Below, in pieces: positions 11,680-60,224 of a stretch of 64,000 nucleotides of DNA. Each line of letters starts with the position of its first letter. Position 1 is the first letter of the stretch. The notes under the pieces were generated by a model. That model was given only the letters and a program-made list of their open reading frames with translations, did no database searches and was not told where the DNA came from. Source of the DNA: Candidatus Melainabacteria bacterium (GTDB lineage: Bacteria; Cyanobacteriota; Vampirovibrionia; 2-02-FULL-35-15); assembly GCA_023250155.1 (NCBI GenBank), contig JAHFBG010000005.1, forward strand, positions 89,057 to 153,056, written 5' to 3'. The translations under genes and the position numbers were made by a program.

Positions 11680-11684
11680 GCCTC

Positions 11685-17382: not shown

Positions 17383-17450
17383 AAGCATCACTTGCTCTAT
17401 CATGTAACATATCTTAAATACAAATAAGTCTTTAAAAAAACTTTATCTTT

Positions 17451-17476
17451 CTGTAACTCCTGGTTACAGTTTTTTT
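17451..17476 (+). terminator. Rho-independent terminator after ORF 15019..17382
   Basis: ctgtaac-tcctg-gttacag hairpin followed by T7. Confidence 0.5.
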
Positions 17477-17535
17477 AAAGCTACCGGGGTATACTCCATA
17501 GGTGTAGGCTAAATATAACTTTTTAGGGGTATAAT

Positions 17536-17877: not shown

Positions 17878-18715
17878 ATTTTATTACTGCATTTGAATTA
17901 AGTTCTTTATAATCAAGCTCTTGATTATCAGACTCAATAAGATATTTTTTAAAAGCATCAGTACCAGGAATAGGTTTATATTTTTTTGAAACTATACTTA
18001 TATCTCTTAAGAGATAATTTTCAAACTCTTCTTTAATAAAATACTGTTTCCTTTTATCTTCAATTATATGAAAGCAATTTCTTTCTAAGTACCTCTCTAA
18101 AAGTTTTTTTTCATCTGCTGCAATCACAGCAAGCACAAATAGCCATAAGTGATCAGTTGTTGCGCCTGCATTATATAACTTCTCACAAGTAGAAGCACCT
18201 ATTCCAAACATTCGATAAATAGCTGGTCGTTCAATTCCATCTCGAAAGATTAGTCTTATTGTTTCTTTTTTCTTTTGTTGTAATTCATTAAACTTTTCTT
18301 CAATCTCTGTATCAGCAATAACGGAGTAAAGATATCGTTCAAGCTCTTCATCAGCTTGTTTCCATCCTCCATCTTCTAGGATAGAAATACAATCCATAGT
18401 CAAATGTTTTATAGGACAGTTTCTTTCAACTCTATTAACCGCAGCATCATAATAAAGCCTGATTTGTTCAGAAGATGCAGAAGCACCTATTAGTTCTGCA
18501 ACTCCTTCTTCAAAGTCTTCTATAGGTAAATCATTTCTATGAAGGTAATTTATTATATGATCATATAACTCAGAATCATCATATAAACTAGTGGATAGAG
18601 AAATTAATTCCCAAATTGTTGTATCACTGAACTTATCAAAAGACTGATATGAAGAGTATTTAGGAAGTGAAGGAAAAGTATCTACTTTTTGTATAGAAAC
18701 ACTCATAAAGTACAA
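17870..18715 (-). CDS. Hypothetical protein, 281 aa, no recognisable domain
   Basis: Long ORF with coding-like composition. Divergently arranged to ORF 18935. Confidence 0.35.
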   Translation of the reverse strand: MYFMSVSIQKVDTFPSLPKYSSYQSFDKFSDTTIWELISLSTSLYDDSELYDHIINYLHRNDLPIEDFEEGVAELIGASASSEQIRLYYDAAVNRVERNCPIKHLTMDCISILEDGGWKQADEELERYLYSVIADTEIEEKFNELQQKKKETIRLIFRDGIERPAIYRMFGIGASTCEKLYNAGATTDHLWLFVLAVIAADEKKLLERYLERNCFHIIEDKRKQYFIKEEFENYLLRDISIVSKKYKPIPGTDAFKKYLIESDNQELDYKELNSNAVIKSS

Positions 18716-18934
18716 ATATTATAGTTTATTCTTAGAGTAGTTGTTCACCTGATTTTATTACAAGCAATAGTCCTTATTCACTCCAGGTGAACAGTTTTAC
18801 TTCTTATGATAAAGTTAGAGGTTAAACATCTTAAACATGTATTTCCATCATTGTTTGACATTAAGATCTTAATTGTGTTATAAATCTTTCAGTTAAATTT
18901 TTATATTTAAGAAGGCAATTATAAGAAATAAATC

Positions 18935-21754
18935 GTGATAAGTAAAATCACTCCAAATAGATTAATAGGTTCCCTAGTACTAGGTTCAGCTTTTATTGTG
19001 GGTTCACAAGGCATATCTGCAGATAAAAAAGAAAGTCCAAAAGTTTTGAATGAGAAAGGTGACAAATCCTTACCTAAACAAAATATAACATTAGACAAAT
19101 TAACTCTTTCAAAAGAAGTATTACAAGAAAAACTATTTAAACAAGTTGAAATATTAAAACCAGGTACAAAAGAAAGAAAAGAAGTACTTGAGATTTTAAA
19201 ACAAAAAGCTGTTTTTGAATTTGAATCTCCAAACAGAAATGAGATTGGGAAAAAGCTAATCCAACTTATGGAGAAAAATAAAAATGCAGAGAGTTGGAAA
19301 GATTTAGCATCAACTATTTTAGATATAATGGAGAAACAAGCATTAGAAAATAAAGAAATTTTACGTGTTGATAACTGGACGGGTAAGGTCGATAAAATAA
19401 AACTCAATGAAGAGTTAATGACTCCATTTGCTAAATGTTTAATATCTGCCTTTGATGATAAATCTCCTGAAGAGTTAAAGACACAAGCTCAAGTTCAAAT
19501 AATCAATTTAATATATCCACCTTTTATATATAAAGAACCTTTCAAAGAATTTCATAAAATACTATTTCAAGAAATAAGTAACGTTCCAGAAGACAAACAA
19601 AAAGAAGTAGCAGTAAAGCTTCGTGACATCACTGGCATTCACTTCAACCATATGGCACATTTACAAAAGCATGAATATACTATCGTGTGGGAATTAGCTA
19701 GAACAATAGCACCTTCCTGTGAAACTATTTTAAAAACAAATTTAAAACTCCTAGCAAGTGATGATTTGACAAAAAAAACTATAGCAACAGATAACTTAAT
19801 AGCTTTAAATAATGTTTTTAGTTTTTCATCGTCAAGATCAGTTTTACATAGAGAAATGAATGCTGTTAAACATATGGATCAGTTTTTCAAAGGAACACTA
19901 ACAAAAGATCCTAAATTACTAAGCACTCAAGAACTAGAAGTCACTATTAAAGCAAGTCAAGCTCTTCTTGAGCTATGTAGTGAAAATCCAATTGAATACC
20001 ATAAATCATATCAAAGCTGGCTACAAAAACAGATTGATAATATACTCATAGATACTTCTAAAGAAAAGCAAATTCTTATAGAAGATGCCATAGCACATGA
20101 GGCAAATCGCAGTTATCTCCACCCACCAGAAATAAGAAAAGAATTTCAACCACTTATAGAAAAATACACAAAACTAACCGTACAGAATTTAGATAATCCT
20201 TTATTTCTAGGTAAAGCTTTAGATACATTTATCATATTCAGGGATCGTATAGTGAACTCATCATACGACATAGACCCTAAAATAAAAAATAACCTTAGTG
20301 AATCTACTATCAACTTATTGGATTTTATAATTGATGGAATTAACAAACTCCCAGAAAGTAAAGAGAAAACTCTTCTTAGGAGTCATATACTTTCAATACC
20401 AGCTTACTTAAGCGCTGAAGAAAAAGCCAAACAAAATAAACTCATTGAAAAGCTCTCTGATTTTTACTGTAAGCAACCTCATAATATAGAAGAGTTTTTA
20501 CAAGTTAGAGGATCCTTATTATATGAAGATCTTACATCTAGCTGGTCTCCTTATATGCTTCATAGTTTTGTATCTAAGAATTTAGACTATTTCGAAAAGA
20601 ATACTAATCAAATTCTTGAATCGCACAAAAAGGCTAAAGAGCCAGAGCATAAGCTATCTACTAGAATCCAAGTACTAGAGCTCTATAAATTCTTTTCAAG
20701 ATTAGAAGAGTCTGAGAATTTGGATGTGTGGTTAAAAACAAGAAATCTAAAAACTCGTTATGAGTTAGGTTCAAAAGAATTACAACCTCTAATATTGAAA
20801 ACAAGTTCTTTCTTTAAAGAAAAACTAGAAAGGCCTTTGTTTAAAATCATCTTATCTGAGATTGACAATGAAACAGTAAAAAGTAAAAAAACAAAAAGTG
20901 GGCAAATCCTTACAGACAATGTAACCTGGAAAGCATTAAACCGAGAACTCCAAATCTTAGTAAAGCTAAGACCATCACTAAGTAGTGAAATCAGAGAAAC
21001 TATAGTTAAGAGATTAAAAAAAGACTCAGATCCACACATCCGCGAAATGTGTTATGAAACTTTAAGAGCTACATTGTCTCGTGAACATAATATTGATAAA
21101 GATCTAATGAGTATTTTAAAAGATGGTATAGCTAAAGAAACCTCACCAGAAGCTATTCGTGGCATAAGTAAAGTTTTATCTGAATATTATATTCTTAGCA
21201 ATAAAAAAGATGGCTCATATTTTAATCCATTTAGAGATCTTTCAAAAGTAAAAGACATAAAATACGAAGAAGTCTCACCCCTATTTACTATTACCTTAGA
21301 CGCTATTCGTATATTAGGAGGAGATGGTGATTTGTTCAAAGCATATCTTCCTCACCATACATTTAAACCTGAAAAGGATGGAAGCATAAATAAAGATGAT
21401 CTTAAAGCCATATTACAGCTTAGAAAAAACGCATTTCTTACCCTTGCAAATACTGGAATTAATATTTCTACATCTGCACCAGACTATAGAGATAGTGTAA
21501 TGAACTATCTGGAAAGAAGATTAGAGAGATATGCTCCTCCAGATGACTTGATAAAAATCTGGGGAGAAGAAGCCACTGCTTTAATAAAAATTTACTCTAC
21601 CCTTGATTCAACAACAAAAAGCAATTCAGAGATTCAATTTAATTCTAAGCTTGATTTTTTAAGAGAAAAGTTTTTTGAGGGCACTCCTACATACTATGAA
21701 ATTGAAGGAAAAAAAAACTATACATCTCAATTCCACTATTCAACCATATCCTAG
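18935..21754 (+). CDS. Secreted α-helical protein, paralog 2 of the 15019 family; N-terminal 939 codons end at a frameshift in an A9 tract
   Basis: GTG start and signal-peptide-like N-terminus. Homology to paralog 1 continues past the stop in the -1 frame. Confidence 0.5.
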   Translation: MISKITPNRLIGSLVLGSAFIVGSQGISADKKESPKVLNEKGDKSLPKQNITLDKLTLSKEVLQEKLFKQVEILKPGTKERKEVLEILKQKAVFEFESPNRNEIGKKLIQLMEKNKNAESWKDLASTILDIMEKQALENKEILRVDNWTGKVDKIKLNEELMTPFAKCLISAFDDKSPEELKTQAQVQIINLIYPPFIYKEPFKEFHKILFQEISNVPEDKQKEVAVKLRDITGIHFNHMAHLQKHEYTIVWELARTIAPSCETILKTNLKLLASDDLTKKTIATDNLIALNNVFSFSSSRSVLHREMNAVKHMDQFFKGTLTKDPKLLSTQELEVTIKASQALLELCSENPIEYHKSYQSWLQKQIDNILIDTSKEKQILIEDAIAHEANRSYLHPPEIRKEFQPLIEKYTKLTVQNLDNPLFLGKALDTFIIFRDRIVNSSYDIDPKIKNNLSESTINLLDFIIDGINKLPESKEKTLLRSHILSIPAYLSAEEKAKQNKLIEKLSDFYCKQPHNIEEFLQVRGSLLYEDLTSSWSPYMLHSFVSKNLDYFEKNTNQILESHKKAKEPEHKLSTRIQVLELYKFFSRLEESENLDVWLKTRNLKTRYELGSKELQPLILKTSSFFKEKLERPLFKIILSEIDNETVKSKKTKSGQILTDNVTWKALNRELQILVKLRPSLSSEIRETIVKRLKKDSDPHIREMCYETLRATLSREHNIDKDLMSILKDGIAKETSPEAIRGISKVLSEYYILSNKKDGSYFNPFRDLSKVKDIKYEEVSPLFTITLDAIRILGGDGDLFKAYLPHHTFKPEKDGSINKDDLKAILQLRKNAFLTLANTGINISTSAPDYRDSVMNYLERRLERYAPPDDLIKIWGEEATALIKIYSTLDSTTKSNSEIQFNSKLDFLREKFFEGTPTYYEIEGKKNYTSQFHYSTIS

Positions 21755-31934: not shown

Positions 31935-33962
31935 TTATACTTTACTACTTAATAAAGAATCAATCTCATATAGTCTAGCTTTTGCTTTATCACTAAAGGG
32001 GTTTAACCGTAACATAATACGAAGTGTTTGTTTAGCTTCTTCATACATCTTATTTTCTACAAATATTCTAGCAGCTTGATAATACAATTCCTCTCCCGTT
32101 ACAAAAAGAGCTTTATCATAAGAAATACTTTTTTCTAAATAGGATAAAGCTTTATCATTATTGCCTATTTTACTATAAAACAACCCAGCAAAAAGATATG
32201 GAAAGGATGACTTCGGATTTAGTTTGATATAGTTTTCTACTAAAGGTATAGCTTCATTATATTTTTTGGTTCTTAACACAATTTCAATAAACGTAGTATT
32301 GTAAGAAAGTTGAAACTTAGGATTATTGATTATAGCCTGCTTTGTAGCTTCCCAAGCCATATCCCACTTGTTTACTCGTACCAAGAAGCTTGCAATTTCA
32401 TTCCATCCAATATAATTACCTTTTACCACTAATGCAGAATCAAAAGCCTTACTTAGATCATCAAAACGTTTTGTTTCTACAAGAAAATTAAATATTAATC
32501 TATAAACCAAGTAATTATATTGCATTTGCATTGGTCCATAGCTAATTGCAAGACTAGGTTTAAGATCTAGGAATTTATCAAGCCAATCTTCAATAATAGA
32601 ACCTTTACTTAAAAAGCCAGATAGTCTATCTAATTCATTTTGTTTTCTTGCTTGCTCTATAGCAAGCTTAACCCATAATGGCTTATTCCATACAGGGGCT
32701 TCTTTAACACAATATACAAACTGATTTAGAAAATCTTTGCTAGATGGCATATAGTATAAAGTTCTACTAATCAAAAAACAAAATAAAGAAAGACAAATCA
32801 ATAAAACAAGCTTACGTTTAACTATTGATTTTGTTAACAATCCAAATAAAGCCAAAGTTAAACCTAAACTTGGAATGTATAAATATCTTAAAGCCACTAT
32901 TGAAAACAAAGGAATTATTTGAATTACTAATAACATAGAAATTAAAAACCATATTATACCTATGCTAAATAAAGGAATTGTTCTAAAAAATACTATTGCA
33001 AAAATTATTAAAGCAATTACAATACACTGGCAAAATATACTATATGGGCTCAATAAAGAATCACCTACCATATACCACTCAGCAGCACTGTCAACTAACC
33101 CGTATGGACAGAAAAATAGTTTTAAATAATGAACAAGTAATTGAGGAGAAAACCAAACTGCTCTAAATAAGATATCTTTCATTGAACCTATTTCCATCCA
33201 CCTGGTTACTAGATTTGCACTTTCTATCAAACCACCATTAGTCGCTAGATACCTTACTAAAAAATAAACAGGATAAATTGAAATTATTGAAAATAATAAT
33301 GAGAGATTTCTTTTTGTGATCAATTCTTCTCTCTTTAAAAAACAGAGAATAAAAAACAACAAAATAGGAAAAAATAAAAAATACTCTACAGACATTATCC
33401 CAAGAAGAAAAAATATATTACCTACTAACATTAGTAAATAACTTTTATATGTAATATTTCTATCTGCTACCTTTAAGTAAAGTAAAAAATAACTTAATAT
33501 AAAACCAAATCCCATTATCCCTGGACCAACTACAAGCCTAGTTAACTGTTGTTGATTAACAGGGTGTATTGTCCACAAAGAAACAATTAAAACTGATATT
33601 AATTTACTGCTAGTAATCCGACAGAATAAAATTGTAGCTAATACACAAACGATACATTGTGCAAAATATTGATAAAGATGAAAACCAAATGGAAAGGCAT
33701 TTTTACCAAAGAAAAAATTGATCAAAAAACACTGCAAACAATGAACTGGCATATAATGATCAGATACCATCCCTGTAACAGAATAAAAGGATTTAATCAC
33801 TAATTGAAAGTCCTTTGTCTGTGGAGTAATTACAAAGGAATCATCACCCCATGCTTGTCCAAAATAAATTGATTGATAATATAAAAAGCAAAACAATAAA
33901 GATGGAATGAGAAAATAATATTTTTCCAATACTCTCAAAATATAGCTTGTAATGATTTTCAT
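31935..33962 (-). CDS. Polytopic membrane protein with C-terminal TPR repeats, TMTC/PMT-like GT-C candidate
   Basis: WGDDSF first-loop acidic motif. VWFSPQLLVHYLKLFFCPYG block paralogous to the 1004 and 12653 ORFs. TPR C-terminus. Confidence 0.55.
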   Translation of the reverse strand: MKIITSYILRVLEKYYFLIPSLLFCFLYYQSIYFGQAWGDDSFVITPQTKDFQLVIKSFYSVTGMVSDHYMPVHCLQCFLINFFFGKNAFPFGFHLYQYFAQCIVCVLATILFCRITSSKLISVLIVSLWTIHPVNQQQLTRLVVGPGIMGFGFILSYFLLYLKVADRNITYKSYLLMLVGNIFFLLGIMSVEYFLFFPILLFFILCFLKREELITKRNLSLLFSIISIYPVYFLVRYLATNGGLIESANLVTRWMEIGSMKDILFRAVWFSPQLLVHYLKLFFCPYGLVDSAAEWYMVGDSLLSPYSIFCQCIVIALIIFAIVFFRTIPLFSIGIIWFLISMLLVIQIIPLFSIVALRYLYIPSLGLTLALFGLLTKSIVKRKLVLLICLSLFCFLISRTLYYMPSSKDFLNQFVYCVKEAPVWNKPLWVKLAIEQARKQNELDRLSGFLSKGSIIEDWLDKFLDLKPSLAISYGPMQMQYNYLVYRLIFNFLVETKRFDDLSKAFDSALVVKGNYIGWNEIASFLVRVNKWDMAWEATKQAIINNPKFQLSYNTTFIEIVLRTKKYNEAIPLVENYIKLNPKSSFPYLFAGLFYSKIGNNDKALSYLEKSISYDKALFVTGEELYYQAARIFVENKMYEEAKQTLRIMLRLNPFSDKAKARLYEIDSLLSSKV

Positions 33963-39032: not shown

Positions 39033-40115
39033 ATGAAAGAAAAAATGCTTAAGTATCTTTGTTGTCCTGAATGTAGCTCTAATATAGAGTTAGCTAGACA
39101 TAAAGGAATTGACTCAACAAATCATATCACTGAGGGTGAATTAGTTTGTACTGGATGCAAAAATACTTATCCCATTATAAGTGGCGTGCCATTTTTCTGT
39201 TTAAATACAGATGATAAAACAGTAGACTTAAATAGAAAGAATTTTGCCAGTGAGTGGAACTACTTTACATCCTCAATGGGAGATAAAAATGAACAGCTTG
39301 CAAAAGATGAATTAGAAAGTTATTTTTCTCCATTTGTTCAGTTTAAAGATTTAGAAGATAAGAGTGTTCTTGAAGGTGGTTGTGGTGGTGGAAGATTAGT
39401 TTATGCAGCAGCAAAATACTCAGGGGCAAAAGAGATAATAGGCGTTGACTTATCAAATGCAGTAATAACAGCTTTTAAAAACACCAGACATCTCCCTAAT
39501 GTTTCAATTATTCAGGCAGATATTACAAATCTACCTTTTAAAAAAGATAAAATGTTTGATTTTATTTATTCTGTTGGTGTATTACACCACATGCCAAATC
39601 CATATTTAGGTTTCAGCTCTTTAGTAGAACATTTAAAAAAAGATGGCAAGATCCTTGCCTGGGTATATGGAAAAGAAGGAAACTCACTATACATAAACTT
39701 TGCAGACCCAATAAGGAAACTAATCACTTCAAGGTTTCCATTTAAAGTAAATCTTTACTTATCATGTTTTATATCACTTATCGTATGGGGCATCATATTA
39801 GGTTTTTATTCTCCACTCAATTTAATATTGAAAGAAAAAAATACTAATAAAGTCTTACCTTTTAATGAATACTTTAACTATTTTAGAAAAAGAGGATTTA
39901 AAGATTTTTGGAGAACTGTTTTTGATAAAATGGTTCCAACAATTTCATACTATATTTCGCATGAAGAATTTAAAACTTGGTTTGAAAAAAGCAATCTAGA
40001 ATATGAAACATATTTTCGAAATGGGCATAGCTGGACTGGGATTGGAAAATCTGCTGTAGGTCTGAGTCGCGACTCAGACCTACAGCAACATGGGTTTAAA
40101 ACAACGTATAAATAA
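39033..40115 (+). CDS. SAM-dependent methyltransferase with N-terminal Trm112-like zinc-ribbon
   Basis: LKYLCCPEC…CTGC zinc ribbon, VLEGGCGGGRL motif I, VGVLHHM. The C-terminal tail is encoded by a 34-nt palindrome. Confidence 0.6.
   Translation: MKEKMLKYLCCPECSSNIELARHKGIDSTNHITEGELVCTGCKNTYPIISGVPFFCLNTDDKTVDLNRKNFASEWNYFTSSMGDKNEQLAKDELESYFSPFVQFKDLEDKSVLEGGCGGGRLVYAAAKYSGAKEIIGVDLSNAVITAFKNTRHLPNVSIIQADITNLPFKKDKMFDFIYSVGVLHHMPNPYLGFSSLVEHLKKDGKILAWVYGKEGNSLYINFADPIRKLITSRFPFKVNLYLSCFISLIVWGIILGFYSPLNLILKEKNTNKVLPFNEYFNYFRKRGFKDFWRTVFDKMVPTISYYISHEEFKTWFEKSNLEYETYFRNGHSWTGIGKSAVGLSRDSDLQQHGFKTTYK
40054..40087. repeat. 34-nt perfect palindrome (17-bp arms, no loop), GC-rich, inside the 3' end of the methyltransferase CDS
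   Basis: gctgtaggtctgagtcg|cgactcagacctacagc read directly. Confidence 0.6.
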
Positions 40116-40254
40116 ACGGTGCTAATGCTGAACCTTCAGTAAAAACAATTAAAGCACCAAGCAAAACTAAAAAAACAATAATAGGAGTTAACCACCATTT
40201 TTTTCTTGTCTTTAAAAATTCCCAGAACTCTGAAACGATTGAAAGATTGCTCAT
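40096..40254 (-). CDS. Small membrane protein (52 aa), SxtK/DUF5989-like, not in the ORF track
   Basis: Reverse-strand ORF translates to MSNLSIVSEFWEFLKTRKKWWLTPIIVFLVLLGALIVFTEGSALAPFIYTLF. This matches the conserved small partner of carbamoyltransferase/SGNH gene sets. Confidence 0.5.
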   Translation of the reverse strand: MSNLSIVSEFWEFLKTRKKWWLTPIIVFLVLLGALIVFTEGSALAPFIYTLF

Positions 40255-40260
40255 AATTTC

Positions 40261-41628
40261 TTATCCCTTAGTATAAAAAACATTCTTAGTCACTAAAAAA
40301 TTATAAACGTATTTTGCAATTTCATGGGACATTTCAGGAGAATAATGATCTATGTCTATATACAATGGTTTTTTCATATTTTCCTGTATATCAGCCAGCC
40401 ATAAGAAATCATTTCCCATATTATGCTTCTTAATAAAGTCTTCCATATAAGCATAACCATACTTAGAATACATAAACCTACCAAATCCCTTACCTGCAAA
40501 TATATGATATTTCAAATCATATTTATAAGTAGGAACGGGTTGCCATATGAAAAATGTTTTTACATTGAAATGTTCACCTATTAGTTCAATGATTTTCTTA
40601 TTCATTACATATCTTTCAACTACAGTTCTTATCATAGGTAAATCATTGTACTCAGACTCACTACTAACAGCTCCTTTTATTTTTGCTTCACCCTCATGTC
40701 CTTTTTTAAAATTTTTGATGGCTGAAAGCAAAGGTAAACTAAGCAAATCAGTACCTTTATCTTCCATAAATTTTCTTAGGTTTTCTGTAAACAATGGCTC
40801 ATCACTATAATAATAAAAATCATTTAAACCATCTATGAAAATCGCAACATCTGGCTTTACACCTGATGTTATAAGCTTTTCAAATAGTATTCTTTCTTGT
40901 GATGAAAAGTAATGACCTCGTCCAAAGTTATAAATATAAGCATTTTTCTTTGAGTTCTGATTCCCACAAAGCTCTTGTAAATAAGAAGCAATGGTTTCAT
41001 TGTCAGGAACACCATAATTAAACGTAGTTGACCCACCAAATAAAAAAATATTTAAGTTTTTAGGATCAGGCGGCCATGGACCTTGATTTTTTGTAACTCT
41101 AAAACCATTTTCACTTACATTAACATACTTACCTTTACATGCCCTCTCTTTAAACTGTGTATAAGGCTCATAAACATAAGGTCTAGACCATGTTTCATAT
41201 AAGAATTTGGGTATCTCTGACTCTTTCAAAGTAGCATACAAAGGTATAAGTTCTTGCCTATATCCTAAAAAAATCTGCTCTCTATAATAAGCCGCATCTT
41301 TAAGTAAAGAAAAGCCATACAAAACACCGTTAAAAAATATAAACAATAAAATCGAGCTAACAATTGTTATTGCAGAATATTTATAATACTGCCCCATCTT
41401 TTTCAGTGACAAGAAACTACTTTTCAAAAAGACAATAACAAATCCTAATACAATTAGACTCAGGCTTATTAGCTCTAAAGGGATTCTATAACTTAACTCT
41501 ACGATTGCATATGGTGAAACAAATTTTTCTAATACAAAGCGACTCGATATTATACCCAAGAAAATAAAAAATATTCCGACTATGGTTTTTAAGTTTTTCA
41601 TGCTTGCCTCATTAGAACTGTCTTTCAT
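40261..41628 (-). CDS. Membrane-anchored SGNH/GDSL-like hydrolase or O-acyltransferase (AlgX/AlgJ-like)
   Basis: N-terminal TM. FLFGGSTTF (GDS-like block), IFIDGLND (GxND), C-terminal DIDHYS (DxxH). Confidence 0.45.
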   Translation of the reverse strand: MKDSSNEASMKNLKTIVGIFFIFLGIISSRFVLEKFVSPYAIVELSYRIPLELISLSLIVLGFVIVFLKSSFLSLKKMGQYYKYSAITIVSSILLFIFFNGVLYGFSLLKDAAYYREQIFLGYRQELIPLYATLKESEIPKFLYETWSRPYVYEPYTQFKERACKGKYVNVSENGFRVTKNQGPWPPDPKNLNIFLFGGSTTFNYGVPDNETIASYLQELCGNQNSKKNAYIYNFGRGHYFSSQERILFEKLITSGVKPDVAIFIDGLNDFYYYSDEPLFTENLRKFMEDKGTDLLSLPLLSAIKNFKKGHEGEAKIKGAVSSESEYNDLPMIRTVVERYVMNKKIIELIGEHFNVKTFFIWQPVPTYKYDLKYHIFAGKGFGRFMYSKYGYAYMEDFIKKHNMGNDFLWLADIQENMKKPLYIDIDHYSPEMSHEIAKYVYNFLVTKNVFYTKG

Positions 41629-42055
41629 AGTTTAACTTATTGAATGATTCTTTTTTTCTTTTTATCCAGTATGTTTGTAACTCTTTATTAAATCTTAGAT
41701 TTAAAGAATCTTTTGAAGTCATTTTATTTAAGAGACCAAGTGGTGTAACCACAACATAAAATAAAAGACATAAAATGACTCTTGTCATAACAGCACCAAT
41801 AATAAGTCCTACTGCCATCCAGATTTTTTGAATGGGTTTAAGAATAATAGGAATTAACAATCCTGATAGTATAAAAAATAATGACAAAATAAAGAAATAA
41901 ATATAATGCTCTTTATGTCTCCACCACAGGCTTCCACCAATGAAGCCAAATACAACACCAACTACTATTCCAAACTCTCTTAACTCTTTCTTTCCACTTT
42001 TTATATTTTTAATTTCTTCTAAAATCATCTTCTTTTCCTTCTTAGTCACGATCAA
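41612..42055 (-). CDS. SxtJ-like small membrane protein
   Basis: 147 aa, 3 TM. Sits between carbamoyltransferase and SGNH genes as in SxtI/J/K-type modules. Confidence 0.4.
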   Translation of the reverse strand: MIVTKKEKKMILEEIKNIKSGKKELREFGIVVGVVFGFIGGSLWWRHKEHYIYFFILSLFFILSGLLIPIILKPIQKIWMAVGLIIGAVMTRVILCLLFYVVVTPLGLLNKMTSKDSLNLRFNKELQTYWIKRKKESFNKLNYERQF

Positions 42056-42071
42056 TCGTATCCCTCCTATA

Positions 42072-43889
42072 TCAATCTAACTCAAACTCTTTTTGCCAAT
42101 GAATATCTTCTTCTAATGGCTTTTGCTCTTTTTTATCTACAAGAAAATTGCCCATGATTAAGTAATCCATATTCGTTCTCATAAAGCAAAGATACGCTTC
42201 TTCTGGAGTACAAACAATAGGCTCTCCTCTAACATTAAACGAAGTGTTTATTACCACTCCACAACCATCCTTTTCATTTAGCTTGGAAATCATTTTATGA
42301 TATAAAAAATTGTCAGCCTTATCTACAGTCTGAACACGTGCAGAGTAGTCTACATGGGTCACTGCAGGAATAGTAGATCTGGCAATATTCAGCTTATCAA
42401 TTCCAAAAAGACTTTCTTCATCTTTTGTCATTTTACGTCGTATTTCTTCTTTTACTGGAGCGACTAGAAGCATATAAGGACTTTCAGAAGATAAATCAAA
42501 ATAATCTTGCACTTTTTCTTTTAAAACAGACGGTGCAAATGGTCTAAAACTTTCTCTAAATTTTATTTTTAAATTCATTTGTTCCTGCATCTTTGGAGAT
42601 CTGGCATCACCTATAATCGACCTAGCACCAAGGGCTCTAGGACCAAATTCCATTCTCCCTTGAAACCACCCTATTACTTTCTCACCACTAATTAACTCAG
42701 CAACCTTTCCTGCAATCTCATTGTCACTTAATTCAATATAAGGAATGTTTTTTGTTTTTAAGAAATTCTGTATATAGTTCTTATCAAAACCAGGTCCAAG
42801 ATATGAACCTTTCTGAGAGTCTTTTTTTCCACTTGCAATTCTTTTATTTCCAAGGTACTGATACCAAACAAACAATGCAGCACCTAAAGCACTACCAGCA
42901 TCTCCGGCTGCTGGCTGTATCCATATATTTTTAAATGGACTATCACGTAATATTCTTCCATTTCCTACACAGTTCAAAGCCACACCACCAGATAAGCACA
43001 AGTTTTTTAATCTTGTTTCTTTATGAGCATATTTAGCCATTCTAAGCATAATCTCTTCAGTGACTTCCTGTATCGATCGTGCAATGTCCATGTCTTTTTG
43101 AGTAAGCTTAGTCTCTGGTTTTCTTGGTTTGCTATCAAACAATTTACTAAATGCAGCATTGGTCATAGTAAGCCCAACACAATAGTCAAAATACTTCATG
43201 TTCAATCTAAATGATCCATCTTCTTTTAAATCTACTAATTCACTTAAAATAAGGTCTTTGTATTTTGGCTCTCCATACGGTGCTAATCCCATAAGCTTAT
43301 ATTCACCAGAGTTGACCTTAAACCCTGTATAGTATGTGAATGCAGAATATAATAATCCTAATGAATGGGGGAATTTTATCTCTGAAAGCAACTCTATTGA
43401 ATTATCTCTACCAATTCCCATGCTAGTAGTTGCCCATTCACCAACTCCATCCATGGTTAATATCGCTGCTTCTTGGTATGGCGATGGAAAAAAAGCACTG
43501 GAAGCATGAGACTCATGATGTTCTGGGAATATAAGCTTTCCACCATAGTTAAGTTCTTTTTGAATAAACTCTTTCATCCACAACTTTTGTTTTATCCAAA
43601 GAGGTATTGCTTTTAGAAAAGACTTTATACCAAACGGTGCATATGTCAAATATGTTTCTAAAATACGCTCAAATTTAATAAATGACTTCTCATAAAATGC
43701 TACAAAATCTAAATCAGATACTTGTATTTTTCCTTCTTGTAAACAATACTGAATAGCATTCCTTGGAAAAGCTGCATCATGTTTCTTTCGTGTGAATCGC
43801 TCTTCCTGAGCAGCCGCCACAATAACACCATCCTGCACCAAACAAGCTGCACTATCATGATAAAAAGCTGAGATTCCTAATATATTCAT
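42072..43889 (-). CDS. Carbamoyltransferase (NodU/CmcH family)
   Basis: MNILGISAFYHDSAACLV N-terminus (YrdC/Kae1-like fold), 605 aa, C-terminal carbamoyltransferase domain. Confidence 0.85.
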   Translation of the reverse strand: MNILGISAFYHDSAACLVQDGVIVAAAQEERFTRKKHDAAFPRNAIQYCLQEGKIQVSDLDFVAFYEKSFIKFERILETYLTYAPFGIKSFLKAIPLWIKQKLWMKEFIQKELNYGGKLIFPEHHESHASSAFFPSPYQEAAILTMDGVGEWATTSMGIGRDNSIELLSEIKFPHSLGLLYSAFTYYTGFKVNSGEYKLMGLAPYGEPKYKDLILSELVDLKEDGSFRLNMKYFDYCVGLTMTNAAFSKLFDSKPRKPETKLTQKDMDIARSIQEVTEEIMLRMAKYAHKETRLKNLCLSGGVALNCVGNGRILRDSPFKNIWIQPAAGDAGSALGAALFVWYQYLGNKRIASGKKDSQKGSYLGPGFDKNYIQNFLKTKNIPYIELSDNEIAGKVAELISGEKVIGWFQGRMEFGPRALGARSIIGDARSPKMQEQMNLKIKFRESFRPFAPSVLKEKVQDYFDLSSESPYMLLVAPVKEEIRRKMTKDEESLFGIDKLNIARSTIPAVTHVDYSARVQTVDKADNFLYHKMISKLNEKDGCGVVINTSFNVRGEPIVCTPEEAYLCFMRTNMDYLIMGNFLVDKKEQKPLEEDIHWQKEFELD

Positions 43890-45565: not shown

Positions 45566-47270
45566 TTGCTCCTATAGCTGGCTCTTGTAATCTATAAACA
45601 ACAACTTTATTCTCTAAATCTACCCCATAATATACATAAGAGTTATCAACTATAGGTTGTCCTTTTAATATGTTAGCTTCATTTTCTTTAAATAGTGGAT
45701 TTTCTGGCTGAAGAAATAAAAACTCTATAGGCTTTGGAAGTTTGTGATTTATAAGTTTAAGCTGATCATTAGACATATCCATTAAAACAACTCTCATTGG
45801 ATATAAATCCCAATTGGTATGCTGTCCAGTATTGAAGTAAATAAACATAGGATTTATATTTCCAACAAATTTTCTTACTATTTCAGCATTTTTATGTGCA
45901 ATACCATGATATAAATCTTTATTCCATTGAGAGATTCTCAAGGCATCTAAATTGAGTGGAACATATACAAGTAGAATAAATATCAAAGCAATAACACTAC
46001 TGCCTTTTTTATATTCACACATAAAAGGTAAAAAATATTTTCTGTTGACCCATAAAATGATTCCTGATGAAATTAAAAGCAATGGTACATAAAGTAAATT
46101 ATACCTACACCTAACACCAATACAACTACCTGCAATTAAATTAAAAATAGTATTTAAGATCAAAATTGAAGTTATTGTAAGAACAATAAAAGCTCTATGT
46201 ACAGGCAAAAGCTCTTTCCATGATAGAAATAAAAAAACTACGATATAGATGAAAATTAAATAATATAATCCAAATTCAAGCCAAGCCGGACTAAAATTAT
46301 ACATTGCTTCTGTATCCATTCCTAAGACTAACATTGGAAACCTTGGGAAATAATATATAACCACATTTTGAATAAAGCCACTAAAGTTATTAATTGCATT
46401 ATTAATAGGATTATGAAAAAAGCCACCTGCAAAATCTGCATACGTACCCAAGATTTCTGTCTTTCTATCAAAGTTCATCATAGGTGCTAAAGGAAGAAAA
46501 ATATATTTTGTAAAAATAAAATAAATACTTGAAAACACACCAAGATAAATAAATAGATGTGCATACCAAGGTCGTTTTGTTTTAACACTTAATCCCATTT
46601 GTTTCACATTACAAAGCATAAAAATAAGAATAATAAAACCAAAAACAATACCGATAAAAAGACTCTTAAAGAAATAAAGCCATATAGCTGCTATTGCCAG
46701 CAAGACTATATTAATCTTACCTTTTGAAATATCTTTAAATATAAAATAAGTAAAAATAGACACTAAGGCACAACCTGGAACCTCCATCATCGCTGAATCA
46801 CAATAGTCCACAATCCTAGGTAAAAATAAAAAAGTTATTCCTGTAAAAAAAGAAAACAGTCTATGATTAGTCATTAATAGCATAGTTAAATAAACAAAAA
46901 TACAAACCACTAAACCACAAAGCCATGTTGAAAAGTAAGCTACATTAATCGATGTTCCAAATAGTTTAAAAAAAATGGCAAGATATGTAGAGTAAACAGG
47001 ATAATGATGAGTATGCTGTGGAAAAGGATATTTAATCGTGCCTAAAACGGTCGTAGTTCTAGTACTGAAATCAAAATCTTTTACTATGCCTTTAGCAGTA
47101 GATAAATAACTGTTTTCATCCCATACAATTTTTTGCTCCCAACAAAGTGTACAAATCACATATATAATCAGCCAAATAAAAAAAATTAAAGCAGGGTATA
47201 AATATTTGGCTTTATCATTATCTATAGAAAATACCTTTTCTATAGGATTCTTACCCACATTACTTATCAT
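45534..47270 (-). CDS. GT39/GT83 (PMT/ArnT-like) GT-C glycosyltransferase, tandem paralog
   Basis: KIVWDENSY DE motif. Collinear similarity to 43886..45565. 32-nt overlap with it. Confidence 0.6.
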   Translation of the reverse strand: MISNVGKNPIEKVFSIDNDKAKYLYPALIFFIWLIIYVICTLCWEQKIVWDENSYLSTAKGIVKDFDFSTRTTTVLGTIKYPFPQHTHHYPVYSTYLAIFFKLFGTSINVAYFSTWLCGLVVCIFVYLTMLLMTNHRLFSFFTGITFLFLPRIVDYCDSAMMEVPGCALVSIFTYFIFKDISKGKINIVLLAIAAIWLYFFKSLFIGIVFGFIILIFMLCNVKQMGLSVKTKRPWYAHLFIYLGVFSSIYFIFTKYIFLPLAPMMNFDRKTEILGTYADFAGGFFHNPINNAINNFSGFIQNVVIYYFPRFPMLVLGMDTEAMYNFSPAWLEFGLYYLIFIYIVVFLFLSWKELLPVHRAFIVLTITSILILNTIFNLIAGSCIGVRCRYNLLYVPLLLISSGIILWVNRKYFLPFMCEYKKGSSVIALIFILLVYVPLNLDALRISQWNKDLYHGIAHKNAEIVRKFVGNINPMFIYFNTGQHTNWDLYPMRVVLMDMSNDQLKLINHKLPKPIEFLFLQPENPLFKENEANILKGQPIVDNSYVYYGVDLENKVVVYRLQEPAIGAIARNENKINA

Positions 47271-48153
47271 TAAAAATCCTTTTTTTCATTAGGACAGCAA
47301 TTAAACCTAAAGAAAGTGTAAAGAGTGCAATGCCTTGTACAATAACATAAACCATAATCCCAAAAGAAACACTTAAACCTTCTGTAAAAACAGGAACTAG
47401 CAATGCTACCAAACCTAACATACTAATCACTCCTGCAATTAACATAAACAATTTAATAGGATTATAAAGTGTAATAGTCTCAGTTAGAATTTGTGCAGAT
47501 CTTAAAATATCTCGAACATACCTTACTTTAGACTTTCCGATACGTGGTCTGTATTCAATGGGAAAATAATATACAGATAAGCCTTCAAGAATAAAAATCA
47601 GTGTAGTAGACAATGAAAAAGAAAATCCACTAGATGTATGTGGAAAATATTTTATAATGGTTGATTTTCTAAATACTCTAAGACCAGAGTTTACATCAAG
47701 GATCTTTTCTCCTGCCACGAACTGAGCTAATTGTTTAAAACAATATCTTGAAAGTTTTTTTAAGAAAGGGTCAAAGCTTTTTAAATTTGTTCTTTTCCCA
47801 ATAATCAAGTCATATCCTTCTTCAAGTTTTTTCATCATCAGTAAAATGTCTTCAATAGGATATGTGCCATCAGCATCTGTAATTGCAATAATATCTCCAG
47901 AGGCAGCAGCAATACCTTTCTTTATAGAAAATCCATAACCTTTATTGTAAGGATTTCTAACAAGCTTAATATCTGCTCGATTTTTTAAAATCTCATGAGT
48001 ACCATCAAATGAGCCATCATCTACAATTACTATTTCCCATAAAACTTTTCCTAATAAGAATTTAATCTCATCTATTGTTTTTTCAATCGCACCTCTCTCA
48101 TTAAAACAAGGAATTACAAGTGAAATTTTTTCTGTTTTGTCTGCTTTTTCCAT
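47260..48153 (-). CDS. Polyprenyl-phosphate sugar synthase, GT2 (Dpm1/ArnC-like)
   Basis: ISLVIPCFNE…VDDGSFDGT…ITDADG motifs. C-terminal TM helices. Overlaps downstream GT39 by 11 nt. Confidence 0.8.
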   Translation of the reverse strand: MEKADKTEKISLVIPCFNERGAIEKTIDEIKFLLGKVLWEIVIVDDGSFDGTHEILKNRADIKLVRNPYNKGYGFSIKKGIAAASGDIIAITDADGTYPIEDILLMMKKLEEGYDLIIGKRTNLKSFDPFLKKLSRYCFKQLAQFVAGEKILDVNSGLRVFRKSTIIKYFPHTSSGFSFSLSTTLIFILEGLSVYYFPIEYRPRIGKSKVRYVRDILRSAQILTETITLYNPIKLFMLIAGVISMLGLVALLVPVFTEGLSVSFGIMVYVIVQGIALFTLSLGLIAVLMKKRIFNDK

Positions 48154-48375
48154 TGTATTTTTTAATTATATTATAAGAAGGTATTACTCATCTTACTTAA
48201 CACTTTTAGACTTTGTATATCAATATCACTTATCTCATCAACAGTATTTATAGTCATTCAATTCATTATATCTAAGGGTTACCTATTTTTTAATGCTAAT
48301 AGTTAAATACATTTCTGTTATAATGTTTTTTGCTAAAATTAAGTACTCTTCTATAAATATAAAGAAAAAAATAAA

Positions 48376-56920: not shown

Positions 56921-56992
56921 GGGCAGTTAGCGCAGTGGTAGCGCACCTCGTTTACACCGAGGGGGTCATAGGTTCAAATCCTATACTGCCCA
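56921..56992 (+). tRNA. tRNA-Val (anticodon TAC)
   Basis: Hand-folded cloverleaf: acceptor GGGCAGT/ACTGCCC, D arm GCGC-AGTGGTA-GCGC, anticodon arm CCTCG-TTTACAC-CGAGG, T arm ATAGG-TTCAAAT-CCTAT. No encoded CCA. Confidence 0.8.
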
Positions 56993-57254: not shown

Positions 57255-60224
57255 ATGAACAAGTATATTCCAGCCAAATTATTTTTATCTTTTATATTAA
57301 TGGTCCAGTTATTGGTCTTACAAAATTTTTATCCTTTATATTCTCAAGCAGCGATGCCAACCTGTAGTGGAACCACAGCTGTATGCCCTTCTGGCCAAAC
57401 TGCGGTTTGTACAAATGGCCATGTTGGTACAGCAAAGTGTGTAGCACAAATTTATGGTGCACCTTATATACCAGGCTGTGAAACAGAGACTGCTTTCTAT
57501 ACTGATGATGCTAATTGTGTTAGCTCATCAACTACTAGCTCATCAACTACTAGTTCATCGACCACAAGCTCATCAACTACCAGCTCTACTAGTGGAACAT
57601 TGTCGATTACAAGTAATTCCCCTTTACCAAATGGCTCATTAAATACTTCTTACTTTAATTCACTTCAAGCTACAGGTGGTTCCCTTCCATATACCTGGTC
57701 ATGGGTTACTGGTTTCCTGCCAAGTGGTTTATTATTTACTACAAACGGTATATTGAACGGTACTCCTACTCAATCTGGTACTTTTACTCCTACCTTTAGA
57801 GTTACTGATTCTTTTAATCAAACTGCTCAACGAACTTTTTCTCTTACTATTGGAGCTCCTATATCAATTACAAGCAGTTCTGTTTTACCTAACGGTACAT
57901 CAAACTCTTTTTATTCTAATACACTTCAAGCTACTGGCGGCACTCTTCCTTACTCCTGGACATTTATTGCAGGTACTTTACCTAGTGGTTTATCATTTAG
58001 TTCTAATGGTGTTTTAAGTGGTACTCCTACTCAATCGGGTACATTCACTCCTACCTTTAGAGTTACTGATGCTTTTGGACAATCCAGCCAACAAACCTTC
58101 TCCCTTACAGTAAATTCTTTTCTGTCAATTACAACTAATGCTTTATCTAATGGTACTTTAAACTCTTTTTATTCCAATACACTTCAAGCTACTGGCGGCA
58201 ACCTTCCTTATACCTGGGCATTTATTGCAGGTACTTTACCTAGCGGTTTATCATTTAGTTCTAATGGTGTTTTAAGTGGTACTCCTACTCAATCGGGTAC
58301 ATTCACACCTACCTTTAGAGTTATTGATGCCATTGGACAATCTAGCCAAAGAACTTTCTCTCTTACTGTAAATTCCTCCCTATCAATTACAACTAGTGCT
58401 TTATCTAATGGTACTTTAAACTCTTTTTATTCCAATACACTTCAAGCTACTGGCGGCACTCTTCCTTACTCCTGGACATTTATTGCAGGTACTTTACCTA
58501 GTGGTTTATCATTTAGTTCTAACGGTGTCTTAAGTGGTACTCCTACCCAATCTGGTACTTTCACTCCTACCTTTAGAGTTACTGATGCTTTTGGACAATC
58601 CAGCCAACAAACCTTCTCTCTTACGGTAAATTCTTCTCTGTCAATTACAAGTACTACTTTATCTAACGGTACTTTAAACTCTTTTTATTCCAATACACTT
58701 CAAGCTACTGGCGGCACTCTTCCTTATTCTTGGTCATTTATTGCAGGTACTTTACCGAGTGGTTTATCATTTAGTTCTAATGGCGTTTTAAGTGGCACTC
58801 CTACTCAATCTGGTACATTCACTCCTACCTTTAGAGTTACTGATGCTCTTGGTAGCACTTTTCAAAGAACTTTCTCTCTTACTGTCAATTCTTCTCTATC
58901 AATTACAACTAGTGCTTTATCCAATGGTATTTTAAATACTTTTTACTCTTATACAGTCCAAGCTACTGGCGGTACTCTTCCATATAGCTGGTCACTTATT
59001 GCTGGTACTTTAGCAAGCGGTTTATCGTTTAGTTCAAATGGTATTGTAAGTGGTACTCCTACTCAAACAGGTACTTTTACTCCTACCTTTAGAGTTATTG
59101 ATGCCCTTGGACAGTCTAGCCAAAGAACTTTCTCTTATACCATTGCCTTACCATTATCTATTACAACTAGTCCTACCCTACCTAATGGTTCTCTAATTGC
59201 TTCTTACTCCAATACACTTCAAGCTACTGGTGGTACTCTTCCTTATACCTGGTCATTTATTGCTGGTACTTTACCTAGTGGTTTATCATTTAGCTCAAAT
59301 GGGGTTGTAAGTGGTACTCCTACTCAAACAGGCACATTCACTCCTACTTTTAGAGTTACTGATGCTCTTAGTCAATCTAGTCAACGAACTTTCTCCATTA
59401 CTGTAGATTCTTCTCAATGCCCTGTATGTCCACTTGGTTCTCCATTAGTACAATGCTCTAATACTTGTACACAACAAGTTATTAATTGTGAAGGAATGAG
59501 CTATACAAATAGCTGTGACTTCCAAATGAGTTATTGCGGCTGTATCCCAACAACATCTTCAAGCAGCTCATCATCTTCTTCAAGCAGCTCTTCTGGAGGG
59601 GTTTGTCAAAGACCTTGTGGAATAGGTTGTTGTACATCTAATCAACTCTGTGTTGTATATGATCCTTGTATGGGGAGTCCTGGTTGTTTAGCACCTATTG
59701 TTCAATATTGTGCTTCACCAACCGGTGGTGCAGTCAACCTCCCATTCTGTTCATATGGAAGTGTAATGTGTGATGTGGGTTCACCGTTGTGTTCTTCAGG
59801 AAGCAATCTTCCTATCTGTGGTTCAACACTAGGATTTACTGGTGACTTAGCTGGTCCTGCATGTACAAATCTAACAACAACAGTATTAAATGTAGGAAAT
59901 GTCTCTTGTTCACAACAACCTCTAAGCAGACTTTCTCTTGATAATGATGTTACTTGTAATAAGAACAAGCTGTGTCCATCAGGGAAGCGATATAGAGCTT
60001 GTAGAGAAGATAGAACAACATGTAAGTGTGTTTGTCCATTTAGAATTAGAGGACAAAAAGTTACACCTACTTGTAATTCCACAGATACACCAATCTGTTC
60101 AAAAGGCTTAACACCTAAGTGCGGAAATGAAAACAATATTCCATTCTGCTCTAAAGGAAAACTATTCTGTGTAGAACCAACTGCACAATCGATAGATTTA
60201 ACTGATACTATTGAGTGTAAGTAA
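57255..60224 (+). CDS. Secreted surface/adhesin-like protein: signal peptide, Ser/Thr-rich linker, ~7.5 tandem He_PIG/cadherin-like Ig repeats, poly-Ser tract, Cys-rich C-terminal domain
   Basis: MNKYIPAKLFLSFILMVQLLVL signal sequence. SSSTTSSSTT linker. ~81-aa repeats with LP.G..F...G.LSGTPT..GTF.PTFRV.D motif. S13GG tract. Many Cys in the last 230 aa. Confidence 0.65.
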   Translation: MNKYIPAKLFLSFILMVQLLVLQNFYPLYSQAAMPTCSGTTAVCPSGQTAVCTNGHVGTAKCVAQIYGAPYIPGCETETAFYTDDANCVSSSTTSSSTTSSSTTSSSTTSSTSGTLSITSNSPLPNGSLNTSYFNSLQATGGSLPYTWSWVTGFLPSGLLFTTNGILNGTPTQSGTFTPTFRVTDSFNQTAQRTFSLTIGAPISITSSSVLPNGTSNSFYSNTLQATGGTLPYSWTFIAGTLPSGLSFSSNGVLSGTPTQSGTFTPTFRVTDAFGQSSQQTFSLTVNSFLSITTNALSNGTLNSFYSNTLQATGGNLPYTWAFIAGTLPSGLSFSSNGVLSGTPTQSGTFTPTFRVIDAIGQSSQRTFSLTVNSSLSITTSALSNGTLNSFYSNTLQATGGTLPYSWTFIAGTLPSGLSFSSNGVLSGTPTQSGTFTPTFRVTDAFGQSSQQTFSLTVNSSLSITSTTLSNGTLNSFYSNTLQATGGTLPYSWSFIAGTLPSGLSFSSNGVLSGTPTQSGTFTPTFRVTDALGSTFQRTFSLTVNSSLSITTSALSNGILNTFYSYTVQATGGTLPYSWSLIAGTLASGLSFSSNGIVSGTPTQTGTFTPTFRVIDALGQSSQRTFSYTIALPLSITTSPTLPNGSLIASYSNTLQATGGTLPYTWSFIAGTLPSGLSFSSNGVVSGTPTQTGTFTPTFRVTDALSQSSQRTFSITVDSSQCPVCPLGSPLVQCSNTCTQQVINCEGMSYTNSCDFQMSYCGCIPTTSSSSSSSSSSSSSGGVCQRPCGIGCCTSNQLCVVYDPCMGSPGCLAPIVQYCASPTGGAVNLPFCSYGSVMCDVGSPLCSSGSNLPICGSTLGFTGDLAGPACTNLTTTVLNVGNVSCSQQPLSRLSLDNDVTCNKNKLCPSGKRYRACREDRTTCKCVCPFRIRGQKVTPTCNSTDTPICSKGLTPKCGNENNIPFCSKGKLFCVEPTAQSIDLTDTIECK
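57597..59410 (+). repeat. Tandem ~243-nt coding repeats (~7.5 copies); some units near-identical at nucleotide level
   Basis: Repeat units 2 and 4 encode identical peptide stretches (TLPYSWTFIAGTLPSGLSFSSNGVLSGTPTQSGTFTPTFRVTDAFGQSSQQTFSLTVNS). Confidence 0.7.

Follow-up and report, generated by a model that had tools for sequence, protein, structure and literature searches.

Introduction

In the saxitoxin gene cluster, sxtI, sxtJ, sxtK and sxtL (1839, 405, 165 and ~1280 bp) lie adjacent on one strand, SxtL being a GDSL protein (PMC2679770, PMC2684587), and sxtJ-, sxtK- and sxtL-like genes are likewise clustered in the suomilide biosynthetic gene cluster (PMC10157211). SxtJ and SxtK are merely assumed to act 'in conjunction with' SxtI (PMC2679770). 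Here we analyse a related module, consisting of a carbamoyltransferase (CT), an SxtJ-family protein, an SGNH-fold protein and a 52-aa DUF5989 microprotein, encoded on the minus strand of a 64,000-nt stretch of Candidatus Melainabacteria DNA (contig JAHFBG010000005.1, positions 89,057 to 153,056; "the window" hereafter means this whole stretch).

A second described system bears on this locus through the C-terminus of the microprotein. The FXYXXF motif is the acyl-shuttle motif of DltX and of bacterial MBOATs, and its Tyr passes an acyl group to the catalytic Ser of a membrane-anchored SGNH protein (DltD, PatB), which modifies an envelope polymer (PMC12148441). DltX of B. thuringiensis has 48 aa, a predicted N-in orientation, one transmembrane (TM) helix and the tail GFHDTNTSTFIYNEF (PMC5541007). 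MBOAT acylation pathways other than Dlt are reported to have no DltX-like microprotein and to carry the motif on the MBOAT itself (PMC12148441, 2025 JBC). Our literature search, from which subscription journals were largely absent, returned no paper on DUF5989, nor any linking DltX with a carbamoyltransferase.

Results

The 52-aa gene encodes a DUF5989 microprotein with an FXYXXF end

The preliminary description of this DNA had placed four genes on the minus strand; a read-out of the open reading frames (ORFs) of the window found all of them there, and the four-gene observation as a whole is confirmed (Table 1). Going by its sequence, the smallest of them, the 52-aa ORF, is a real gene. It matches the DUF5989 model PF19451 with 91 bits (cut-off 27) over 48 of the 49 model positions in a hidden Markov model check, which agrees with its first assignment to the SxtK/DUF5989-type proteins, and its homologs run to thousands (2794 homologous protein clusters), so the possibility that it has none fails. 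Comparison with 79 homologous genes gave 1530, 548 and 2669 differences on codon positions 1, 2 and 3, a coding-type pattern. At the same time, the gene is not unannotated, as had been thought, but has already been called and labelled in public data. Its TM helix spans residues 21-39, and the N-in/C-out orientation is a prediction from the distribution of Lys and Arg and from K/R-rich fusion linkers, which the three-segment count of SxtJ would invert. A PDB sequence search with the DUF5989 profile gave no match.

The FXYXXF end is shared throughout the family: among 254 unique DUF5989 sequences, Phe is found at position -6 in 250, Tyr at -4 in 252 and Phe at -1 in 251, and no sequence runs on beyond this end. 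A control scan took in the other ORFs of the same loci that reach 35 aa; out of 12,178, only three ended in F.Y..F, namely two MBOATs and one DUF5989-like ORF, and the two MBOATs serve as positive controls of the scan. In the window itself, the DUF5989 ORF is alone among 720 ORFs in having such an end; no Pfam MBOAT match was seen among the window ORFs scanned. MBOATs are present in just 2 of the 160 sampled loci, each with its own motif. They are true MBOAT genes (L132:2671-4098 and L025:1399-2181, ending in FIYVKF and FIYFQF) in loci that also hold the gene triad described below; that of L132 lies directly 3' of a triad block in the order SxtJ, DUF5989, CT, so that a classical MBOAT acylation module and a CT module can coexist side by side. 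Another locus (L148:5158-5466) has a tandem pair of DUF5989-like ORFs, the second of 39 aa and ending in FPYALF.

We considered whether DUF5989 is a DltX homologue or a member of PF12459 and did not adopt this, as hmmscan gave no match at E values up to 10 and hhalign a probability of 0.3%. Because profile comparison finds no homology, only a shared architecture and motif are claimed here, and not membership of the DltX family. We also rejected the idea that DUF5989 is far more conserved than its neighbours, which reflected the ranking bias of top matches of 77-90% identity: mean pairwise identity in 103 matched triads is 60% for DUF5989, 63% for the CT and 31% for SxtJ, that is, parity with the CT.

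Table 1. Window positions of the genes and sequence elements of the carbamoyltransferase operon
Feature	Position	Strand	Basis or detail
Candidate operon promoter, sigma-70-like TTAAAA-17-TATAAT, 10/12	48265..48293	-	Consensus scan; 222-bp gap upstream of GT2
GT2 of the polyprenyl-phosphate sugar synthase type, at the head of the operon	47260..48153	-	Pfam Glycos_transf_2, 103.8 bits
GT-C-type membrane glycosyltransferase, paralogue 1, 578 aa	45534..47270	-	PMT_2, 29.2 bits (cut-off 26.1)
GT-C-type membrane glycosyltransferase, paralogue 2, 559 aa	43886..45565	-	PMT_2, 18.5 bits (below cut-off)
Class III (TobZ/GdmN/NovN-type) O-carbamoyltransferase (CT), ATP- and carbamoyl-phosphate-dependent by family, 605 aa	42072..43889	-	Pfam and PDB matches
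SxtJ-family small membrane protein, 138 aa, start ATG 42028	41612..42028	-	PF19588, 35.9 bits (gathering score 24.4)
SGNH-fold protein of 455 aa, anchored by three N-terminal TM helices; predicted outside location of the catalytic domain	40261..41628	-	
Shine-Dalgarno-like AAGGGA, 9 nt upstream of the DUF5989 ATG, within the last codons of the SGNH gene	40264..40269	-	Sequence read
DUF5989 microprotein of 52 aa with a K/R-rich N-terminus, a single TM helix and a tail of 13 residues	40096..40254	-	PF19451
Codons of the C-terminal hexapeptide F47-I-Y49-T-L-F52, FXYXXF match	40099..40116	-	Tyr49 codon 40108..40110

The CT, SxtJ and DUF5989 genes form a conserved triad

With the DUF5989 alignment as query, species-representative genomes yielded at least 577 matching stretches, the best 80 of which, from at least 15 phyla, were analysed as loci. 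A CT and an SxtJ gene were immediately adjacent and on the same strand in 56 of these 80; the remaining 24 have DUF5989 with no CT within the available flank, and at least five of them end at contig ends. The reverse sample was anchored on the CT and consisted of 80 metagenome loci with CTs 57-77% identical to that of the window, 59 of which had at least 800 bp downstream. Within those 59, both SxtJ and DUF5989 were present in 50 (as CT-J-K or J-K-CT, where I, J, K and L stand for the CT, SxtJ, DUF5989 and SGNH genes as in the saxitoxin cluster), J only in six and neither in three. CT-SxtJ-DUF5989 is thus a conserved triad, and the gene-neighbourhood counts uphold the earlier statement that carbamoyltransferases of this kind regularly have these small proteins beside them. 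The identity of the genes and their association are already known, being named in RefSeq as members of named families; what we add are the natural fusions, the SGNH protein as the commonest extra neighbour, and the DltX-like architecture and FXYXXF end of DUF5989.

Among 100 co-directional neighbours of the triad, SGNH/GDSL proteins were the top single family (9, plus 4 AlgX-like), followed by GT2, GT4 and GT9 heptosyltransferases (8 each) and then by methyltransferases, Wzy_C and carbamoyl-phosphate synthase. In ~12 of 80 loci an SGNH gene either separated J from K, the arrangement of the window, or came right after K, as in sxtI-J-K-L, and the I-J-L-K layout of the window is a recurrent variant. 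We rejected the SGNH protein as an obligate fourth member, since it is adjacent in only ~10-15% of triads.

Fusions were surveyed in the best 150 CT representatives of a library of 1.84 billion proteins. The CT was fused at its C-terminus to SxtJ in six proteins (P0373, P0405, P0384, P0381, P0375 and P0490) and to both SxtJ and DUF5989 in two (P0409 and P0419). In P0479 and P0507 the CT is followed by SxtJ-like TM segments, a K/R-rich loop, a further TM segment and an SGNH domain, while in P0425 and P0401 a single TM segment joins the CT to the SGNH domain, and a DUF5989 gene directly follows, and a mini-SxtJ gene precedes, each of these two. One N-terminal GDSL-CT fusion and CT-methyltransferase fusions were also seen. 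From these fusions we argue that CT, SxtJ, DUF5989 and SGNH act together at the membrane, and from the single TM segment between CT and SGNH that these two domains are placed on opposite sides of it. Single-sequence structure prediction of the CT-J-K fusion P0409 was unusable, with a predicted local distance difference test score (pLDDT) of 37. The mini-SxtJ proteins (L172:4696-4935 and L173:4721-4984) have 79-87 aa and correspond to the C-terminal half only, with one long hydrophobic stretch containing the conserved Arg, plus the tail; their position before CT-TM-SGNH genes suggests that the C-terminal half is the functional core of SxtJ.

DUF5989 is also found with an SGNH gene in the absence of a CT, in three loci. 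Two of these have an orphan DUF5989 with SGNH or AlgX-like flanks and no CT or SxtJ nearby (L060:5983-8255, where both sides are so flanked, and L073:1318-2862); the third, L039, from a member of the Melainabacteria, reads GT-C/GT-C/SxtJ/SGNH/DUF5989 and is syntenic with the window, with no CT. In three further loci (L051, L055 and L056), an orphan DUF5989 gene (~7001..7159) with no CT or SxtJ within 7 kb lies directly upstream of a CarA-like gene for the small subunit of carbamoyl-phosphate synthase (~7166..8371), which ties the microprotein to carbamoyl chemistry. The gene was also seen on plasmids: the megaplasmids of Sinorhizobium meliloti and S. fredii (J-K-CT) and plasmids of Planctomycetes, comprising L170 (S. 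meliloti pSym, NZ_CP019487.1 465504-481656) plus 46 other plasmids. On pPL62-1 it is found beside exosortase/EpsI genes and a sugar O-acetyltransferase, and many plasmid records that carry it leave the small gene unannotated.

Properties of the CT, SxtJ and SGNH proteins

Both Pfam domains of the CT are full-length, with 349 and 243 bits (PF02543, Kae1-like, model positions 2-346 of 346; PF16861, YrdC-like, 1-170 of 170), and full-length alignments to solved structures gave E values of 1e-74 to 1e-91 (7xb6, 1.7e-91; NovN, GdmN and TobZ). The preliminary label of a NodU/CmcH carbamoyltransferase holds for the family and not for NodU orthology, the score against NCBIfam NF041651 being 128.9 bits where the equivalog cut-off is 1000. 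Residues H133, H137, D156, D333 and H27 of GdmN are its Fe ligands and catalytic base (PMC9633730), and H124, H128, D147, D330 and H11 of the window CT align to them in that order, so that all five catalytic and metal residues, whose absence would have counted against the preliminary reading, are kept. A hydropathy scan of the CT found no hydrophobic or TM segment. Judged by these results, the CT is shown here to be a complete, intact, cytoplasmic member of the O-carbamoyltransferases, which by family would form carbamoyl-AMP.

The SxtJ gene encodes 138 aa, because the family alignment and the orthologue in a groundwater relative (L168; 138 aa) both begin at what had been taken as Met10 of the window protein. 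The family and the three TM segments given for it at first stand, while the length of 147 aa (41612..42055) does not. The protein shares the invariant N-I-K-S, P..L.P, W-M and Y-E-x-Q-F columns with 18 homologues, and hydropathy shows three hydrophobic segments and K/R-rich termini. A near-invariant Arg lies mid-way in the last hydrophobic region. The C-terminus (window 41612..41629) is a conserved Y-E-x-Q-F/Y, with Tyr at position -5 in 177 and Phe or Tyr at -1 in 235 of 245 sequences, and sits on a tail rich in Lys and Arg that presumably faces the cytoplasm. The 3' end of the gene overlaps the start of the SGNH gene by 17 nt.

The SGNH protein has the SGNH alpha/beta fold, and S200 (block I), G238 (II), N269 (III) and D425/H428 (V) show little or no variation among 71 homologues; with all catalytic blocks and the N-terminal TM helices found, its description as a membrane-anchored SGNH protein is borne out. 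Its Lipase_GDSL_2 score is sub-threshold (23.1 bits, cut-off 32.9), and in profile terms the window protein is a divergent subfamily, many homologues of which do carry PF13472. A PDB sequence search with it returned low-complexity noise only. Distant and paralogous members of its family occur in polysaccharide loci without CT, J or K.

The module is part of a seven-gene operon in a glycan island

The window has a GC content of ~31%, and the closest named homologues come from Candidatus Melainabacteria. CT, SxtJ, SGNH and DUF5989 form the 3' half of a seven-gene minus-strand operon in which the frames overlap or nearly abut. Its GT2 has ArnC (4.9e-19), DPMS and GtrB/sll0501 as top solved relatives; the 3' end of this gene overlaps the start of the next by 11 nt, and it holds the equivalent place in L168. 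The two GT-C paralogues are 37% identical to each other; paralogue 1 is kept in L168 and L039, and the stop of paralogue 2 overlaps the CT start by 4 nt. All seven genes, together with a convergent Trm112-methyltransferase gene, are present in L168, whose SGNH protein is 52% identical to that of the window. The best promoter-like match in the gap upstream of GT2 is weak evidence for an operon promoter: the promoter and terminator consensus scan gave counts at or below shuffle expectation, and promoter-like sites were not enriched.

The surrounding 25 kb contain GT2, GT4, DegT, AsnB, nucleotidyltransferase and many S-adenosylmethionine-dependent methyltransferase genes, and then recF and gyrB, because of which we regard this as a chromosomal glycan island; the glycan context of the window genes is strong. 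The Trm112-methyltransferase gene (39033..40115), convergent with the operon, overlaps the DUF5989 gene by 20 nt, and the same overlap is seen in L168. Within its 3' end, directly 3' of the DUF5989 stop, lies a perfect 20-nt palindrome, GTCTGAGTCGCGACTCAGAC (40060..40079), without a T-run, which may terminate transcription in both directions or form a regulatory hairpin.

Elsewhere in the window, 1004..21754 and 31935..33962 hold several sets of paralogues, proteins of 750-940 aa with little or no Pfam signal. The products of 5803..8121 and 8121..10421 are 43% identical and DUF2298-like, those of 15019..17382 and 18935..21754 are 35% identical, and 1004..3406, 12653..14908 and 31935..33962 have TPR tails. 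These are probably further GT-C-type membrane glycosyltransferases, unusually many for one island. Downstream of a tRNA-Val gene (56921..56992), 57255..60224 encodes a protein of 989 aa whose seven Ig-like repeats are of the He_PIG/PKD type; it probably belongs to the cell surface and has no relation to the carbamoylation genes.

Discussion

We propose that the four genes may encode the catalytic core of a membrane-bound machine that carbamoylates a cell-envelope glycan, one that would be built by the same operon through its ArnC/GtrB-like undecaprenyl phosphate (Und-P)-sugar synthase and its two periplasm-acting GT-C transferases. The cytoplasmic CT would make carbamoyl-AMP, as is known for its family, and its Kae1-like transferase domain would carbamoylate the phenol of Tyr49 in DUF5989, giving the microprotein a DltX-like role, with SxtJ probably offering a place to dock, or a passage, within the membrane. 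Ser200 in the SGNH domain outside would then receive the carbamoyl group from the 13-residue tail, and from this serine the group could pass to a hydroxyl of the exported, GT-C-assembled glycan. Such a relay would permit carbamoylation on the side of the membrane that is without ATP and carbamoyl phosphate. We infer this route, from CT through Tyr49 and Ser200 to the glycan, from sequence, context and analogy with the literature, and give it slightly less than an even chance. Support for it comes from the motif, from the adjacency and fusions of the SGNH protein, from the CT-less DUF5989-SGNH pairs, from the carbamoyl-phosphate synthase loci, and from a conservation of DUF5989 that equals that of the CT. 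The preliminary description foresaw O-carbamoylation with a distinct O-acylation or deacylation beside it, which is one possibility; the FXYXXF tail, taken with the CT-TM-SGNH fusions, suggests instead that the SGNH protein is itself a part of the carbamoyl pathway.

Several points weigh against the relay. Its weakest step is the passage from the cytoplasmic active site to an outer-face tyrosine, for which no route is evident: there is no channel-forming MBOAT or AT3, and the SxtJ family has no invariant His. Most triads are without an adjacent SGNH gene, the membrane topology of the module is a prediction, and the hydrolase CgnD (PDB 8a2n) is by a wide margin the closest solved structure to the SGNH domain. 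The CT might instead directly carbamoylate a lipid-linked sugar at the inner leaflet (the Und-P-sugar of the operon's GT2 here; lipid A-core or an Und-PP-oligosaccharide elsewhere), followed by flipping and GT-C transfer, while SxtJ and DUF5989 tether or orient the CT or help to present or flip the substrate. The SGNH protein would then work on the same glycan independently, as an O-acetyl esterase or transferase outside the cytoplasm, which comes close to the preliminary description. Direct transfer of this kind is a serious possibility, albeit one that we would sooner doubt than adopt. The acceptor-transfer domain of the CT is complete and has its catalytic His, the characterised relatives modify their final acceptor directly (PMC9633730), Pseudomonas WapO is thought to carbamoylate a heptose of the lipopolysaccharide core (PMC8005017), and GT9 heptosyltransferases make up eight of the neighbours that follow the triad. 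Moreover, the operon has the ArnC-like GT2 and GT-C layout in which cytoplasmic modification precedes flipping, anchoring explains the CT-J and CT-J-K fusions equally well, and the lack of an SGNH gene beside most triads, as well as the presence of the SGNH family where there is no CT, also speaks for it. On the other hand, this explanation does not account for a mere anchor being as conserved as the enzyme, for an invariant FXYXXF-COOH, otherwise specific to MBOATs and DltX, on the predicted outer face, for the fusion of the CT across a TM segment to an outside SGNH domain with DUF5989 adjoining, or for the pairing of DUF5989 with SGNH in CT-less loci.

The resemblance to CgnD also allows an editing role, in which the SGNH protein is a hydrolase (a decarbamoylase, or a CgnD-like esterase or amidase) trimming carbamoyl or acyl groups outside, and DUF5989 and SxtJ regulate or position it. 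For SxtL, the annotation within the sxt cluster is that of a GDSL lipase which removes carbamoyl groups (PMC2679770), although this assignment is a prediction, and the structural neighbours other than CgnD are mostly esterases, but PatB and OatA, which stand mid-table together with OafB, matched as well, because of which the fold favours neither a transferase nor a hydrolase. We think editing improbable: a hydrolase has no need of a Tyr-bearing shuttle microprotein, and fusing a CT that installs a group to a domain that removes it would be futile unless strongly regulated. It would take more still to persuade us that the FXYXXF tail is coincidental or structural, for example an aromatic membrane-interface anchor, and that SxtJ and DUF5989 are non-catalytic proteins for assembly, stability or product export. 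Homology with DltX is undetectable, short motifs can converge, and saxitoxin biosynthesis, whose substrate is small and soluble, has no need of an envelope relay; yet ~250 of the 254 sequences, drawn from at least 15 phyla, have the motif unchanged and always as their very last residues, the control ORFs that share it are limited to true MBOATs and one DUF5989-like ORF, and the SGNH partnership mirrors DltX-DltD and PatA-PatB, so that we hold this very unlikely.

Taken at face value, the module is ordinary, its families having names in Pfam and RefSeq already, and the hypothesis of a carbamoyl shuttle goes further. It is possible, and we suggest it tentatively, that CT-SxtJ-DUF5989(-SGNH) constitutes a third class of tyrosine-mediated trans-membrane group transfer, beside MBOAT-SGNH and AT3-SGNH, and the first for carbamoyl: the tyrosine loaded by an adenylate-forming CT would be Tyr49, in a DltX-like microprotein that stands by itself, and the transfer would be completed outside by an SGNH protein or by another acceptor enzyme. 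If this is true, hundreds of species in at least 15 phyla would have the relay, the acyl-tyrosine principle would broaden from acyl to carbamoyl and from MBOAT/AT3 to adenylating transferases, and envelope glycans could be carbamoylated after export with no ATP or carbamoyl phosphate at hand. It would also give roles to SxtJ, SxtK and SxtL, with the last carbamoylation step of saxitoxin using the same relay. SxtJ and SxtK have been without a function since the sxt cluster was described, reviews drawing an 'SxtI/J/K complex', and Tyr49 offers a hypothesis at the level of a single residue. Since the triad is found on the megaplasmids of S. meliloti and S. fredii and in cultured Planctomycetes, genetics is feasible.

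Compared with the saxitoxin genes, the window has the same four protein types in similar sizes (1818, 417, 159 and 1368 bp for the CT, SxtJ, DUF5989 and SGNH genes), in the order I-J-L-K and not I-J-K-L, and in a glycan operon instead of an alkaloid pathway; the likeness of SxtK and SxtL to the window proteins is taken from Pfam names, gene sizes, order and annotations and not from sequences, and that of SxtJ from the name of the Pfam model. The CT is like TobZ, GdmN, NovN and NodU/CmcH in its Kae1-like and YrdC-like layout, its Fe-binding His/His/Asp/Asp set and its catalytic His. Those enzymes, however, are soluble and stand-alone and have soluble-metabolite acceptors, whereas in the clade of the window CT the SxtJ and DUF5989 proteins come from accompanying genes or form part of the same polypeptide; the C-terminal dimerisation domain of GdmN is absent from the window CT. 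CgnD, from crocagin biosynthesis, is a soluble protein with slow leader-peptide cleavage, in contrast to the SGNH protein of the window with its three N-terminal TM helices and its place in a glycan operon.

The operon as a whole resembles the Arn (ArnC/ArnD/ArnEF/ArnT) and Gtr (GtrA/GtrB/GtrC) systems in having an ArnC/DPMS/GtrB-like GT2 followed by GT-C/PMT_2-type transferases, with a modifying enzyme and small membrane proteins encoded alongside. It differs in that the modifying enzyme is a carbamoyltransferase and in having two GT-C paralogues; a Pfam and NCBIfam scan of the operon proteins found no ArnD, ArnE/F or GtrA. The nearest parallel for the microprotein is DltX, together with the equivalent C-terminal tail of bacterial MBOATs such as PatA: DltX and DUF5989 each have a K/R-rich N-terminus, one TM helix and a tail of 13-15 residues in ~50 aa, and the ends read FIYNEF in DltX, FIYANF in PatA and FIYTLF here. 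The neighbours are also alike, namely an adenylate-forming enzyme (DltA; here the YrdC-like domain of the CT) and a membrane-anchored SGNH protein (DltD or PatB; here the product of the gene between SxtJ and DUF5989). Here there is no MBOAT and no carrier protein; by analogy the membrane partner would be the small SxtJ, and the group conveyed would be carbamoyl in place of D-alanyl or acetyl.

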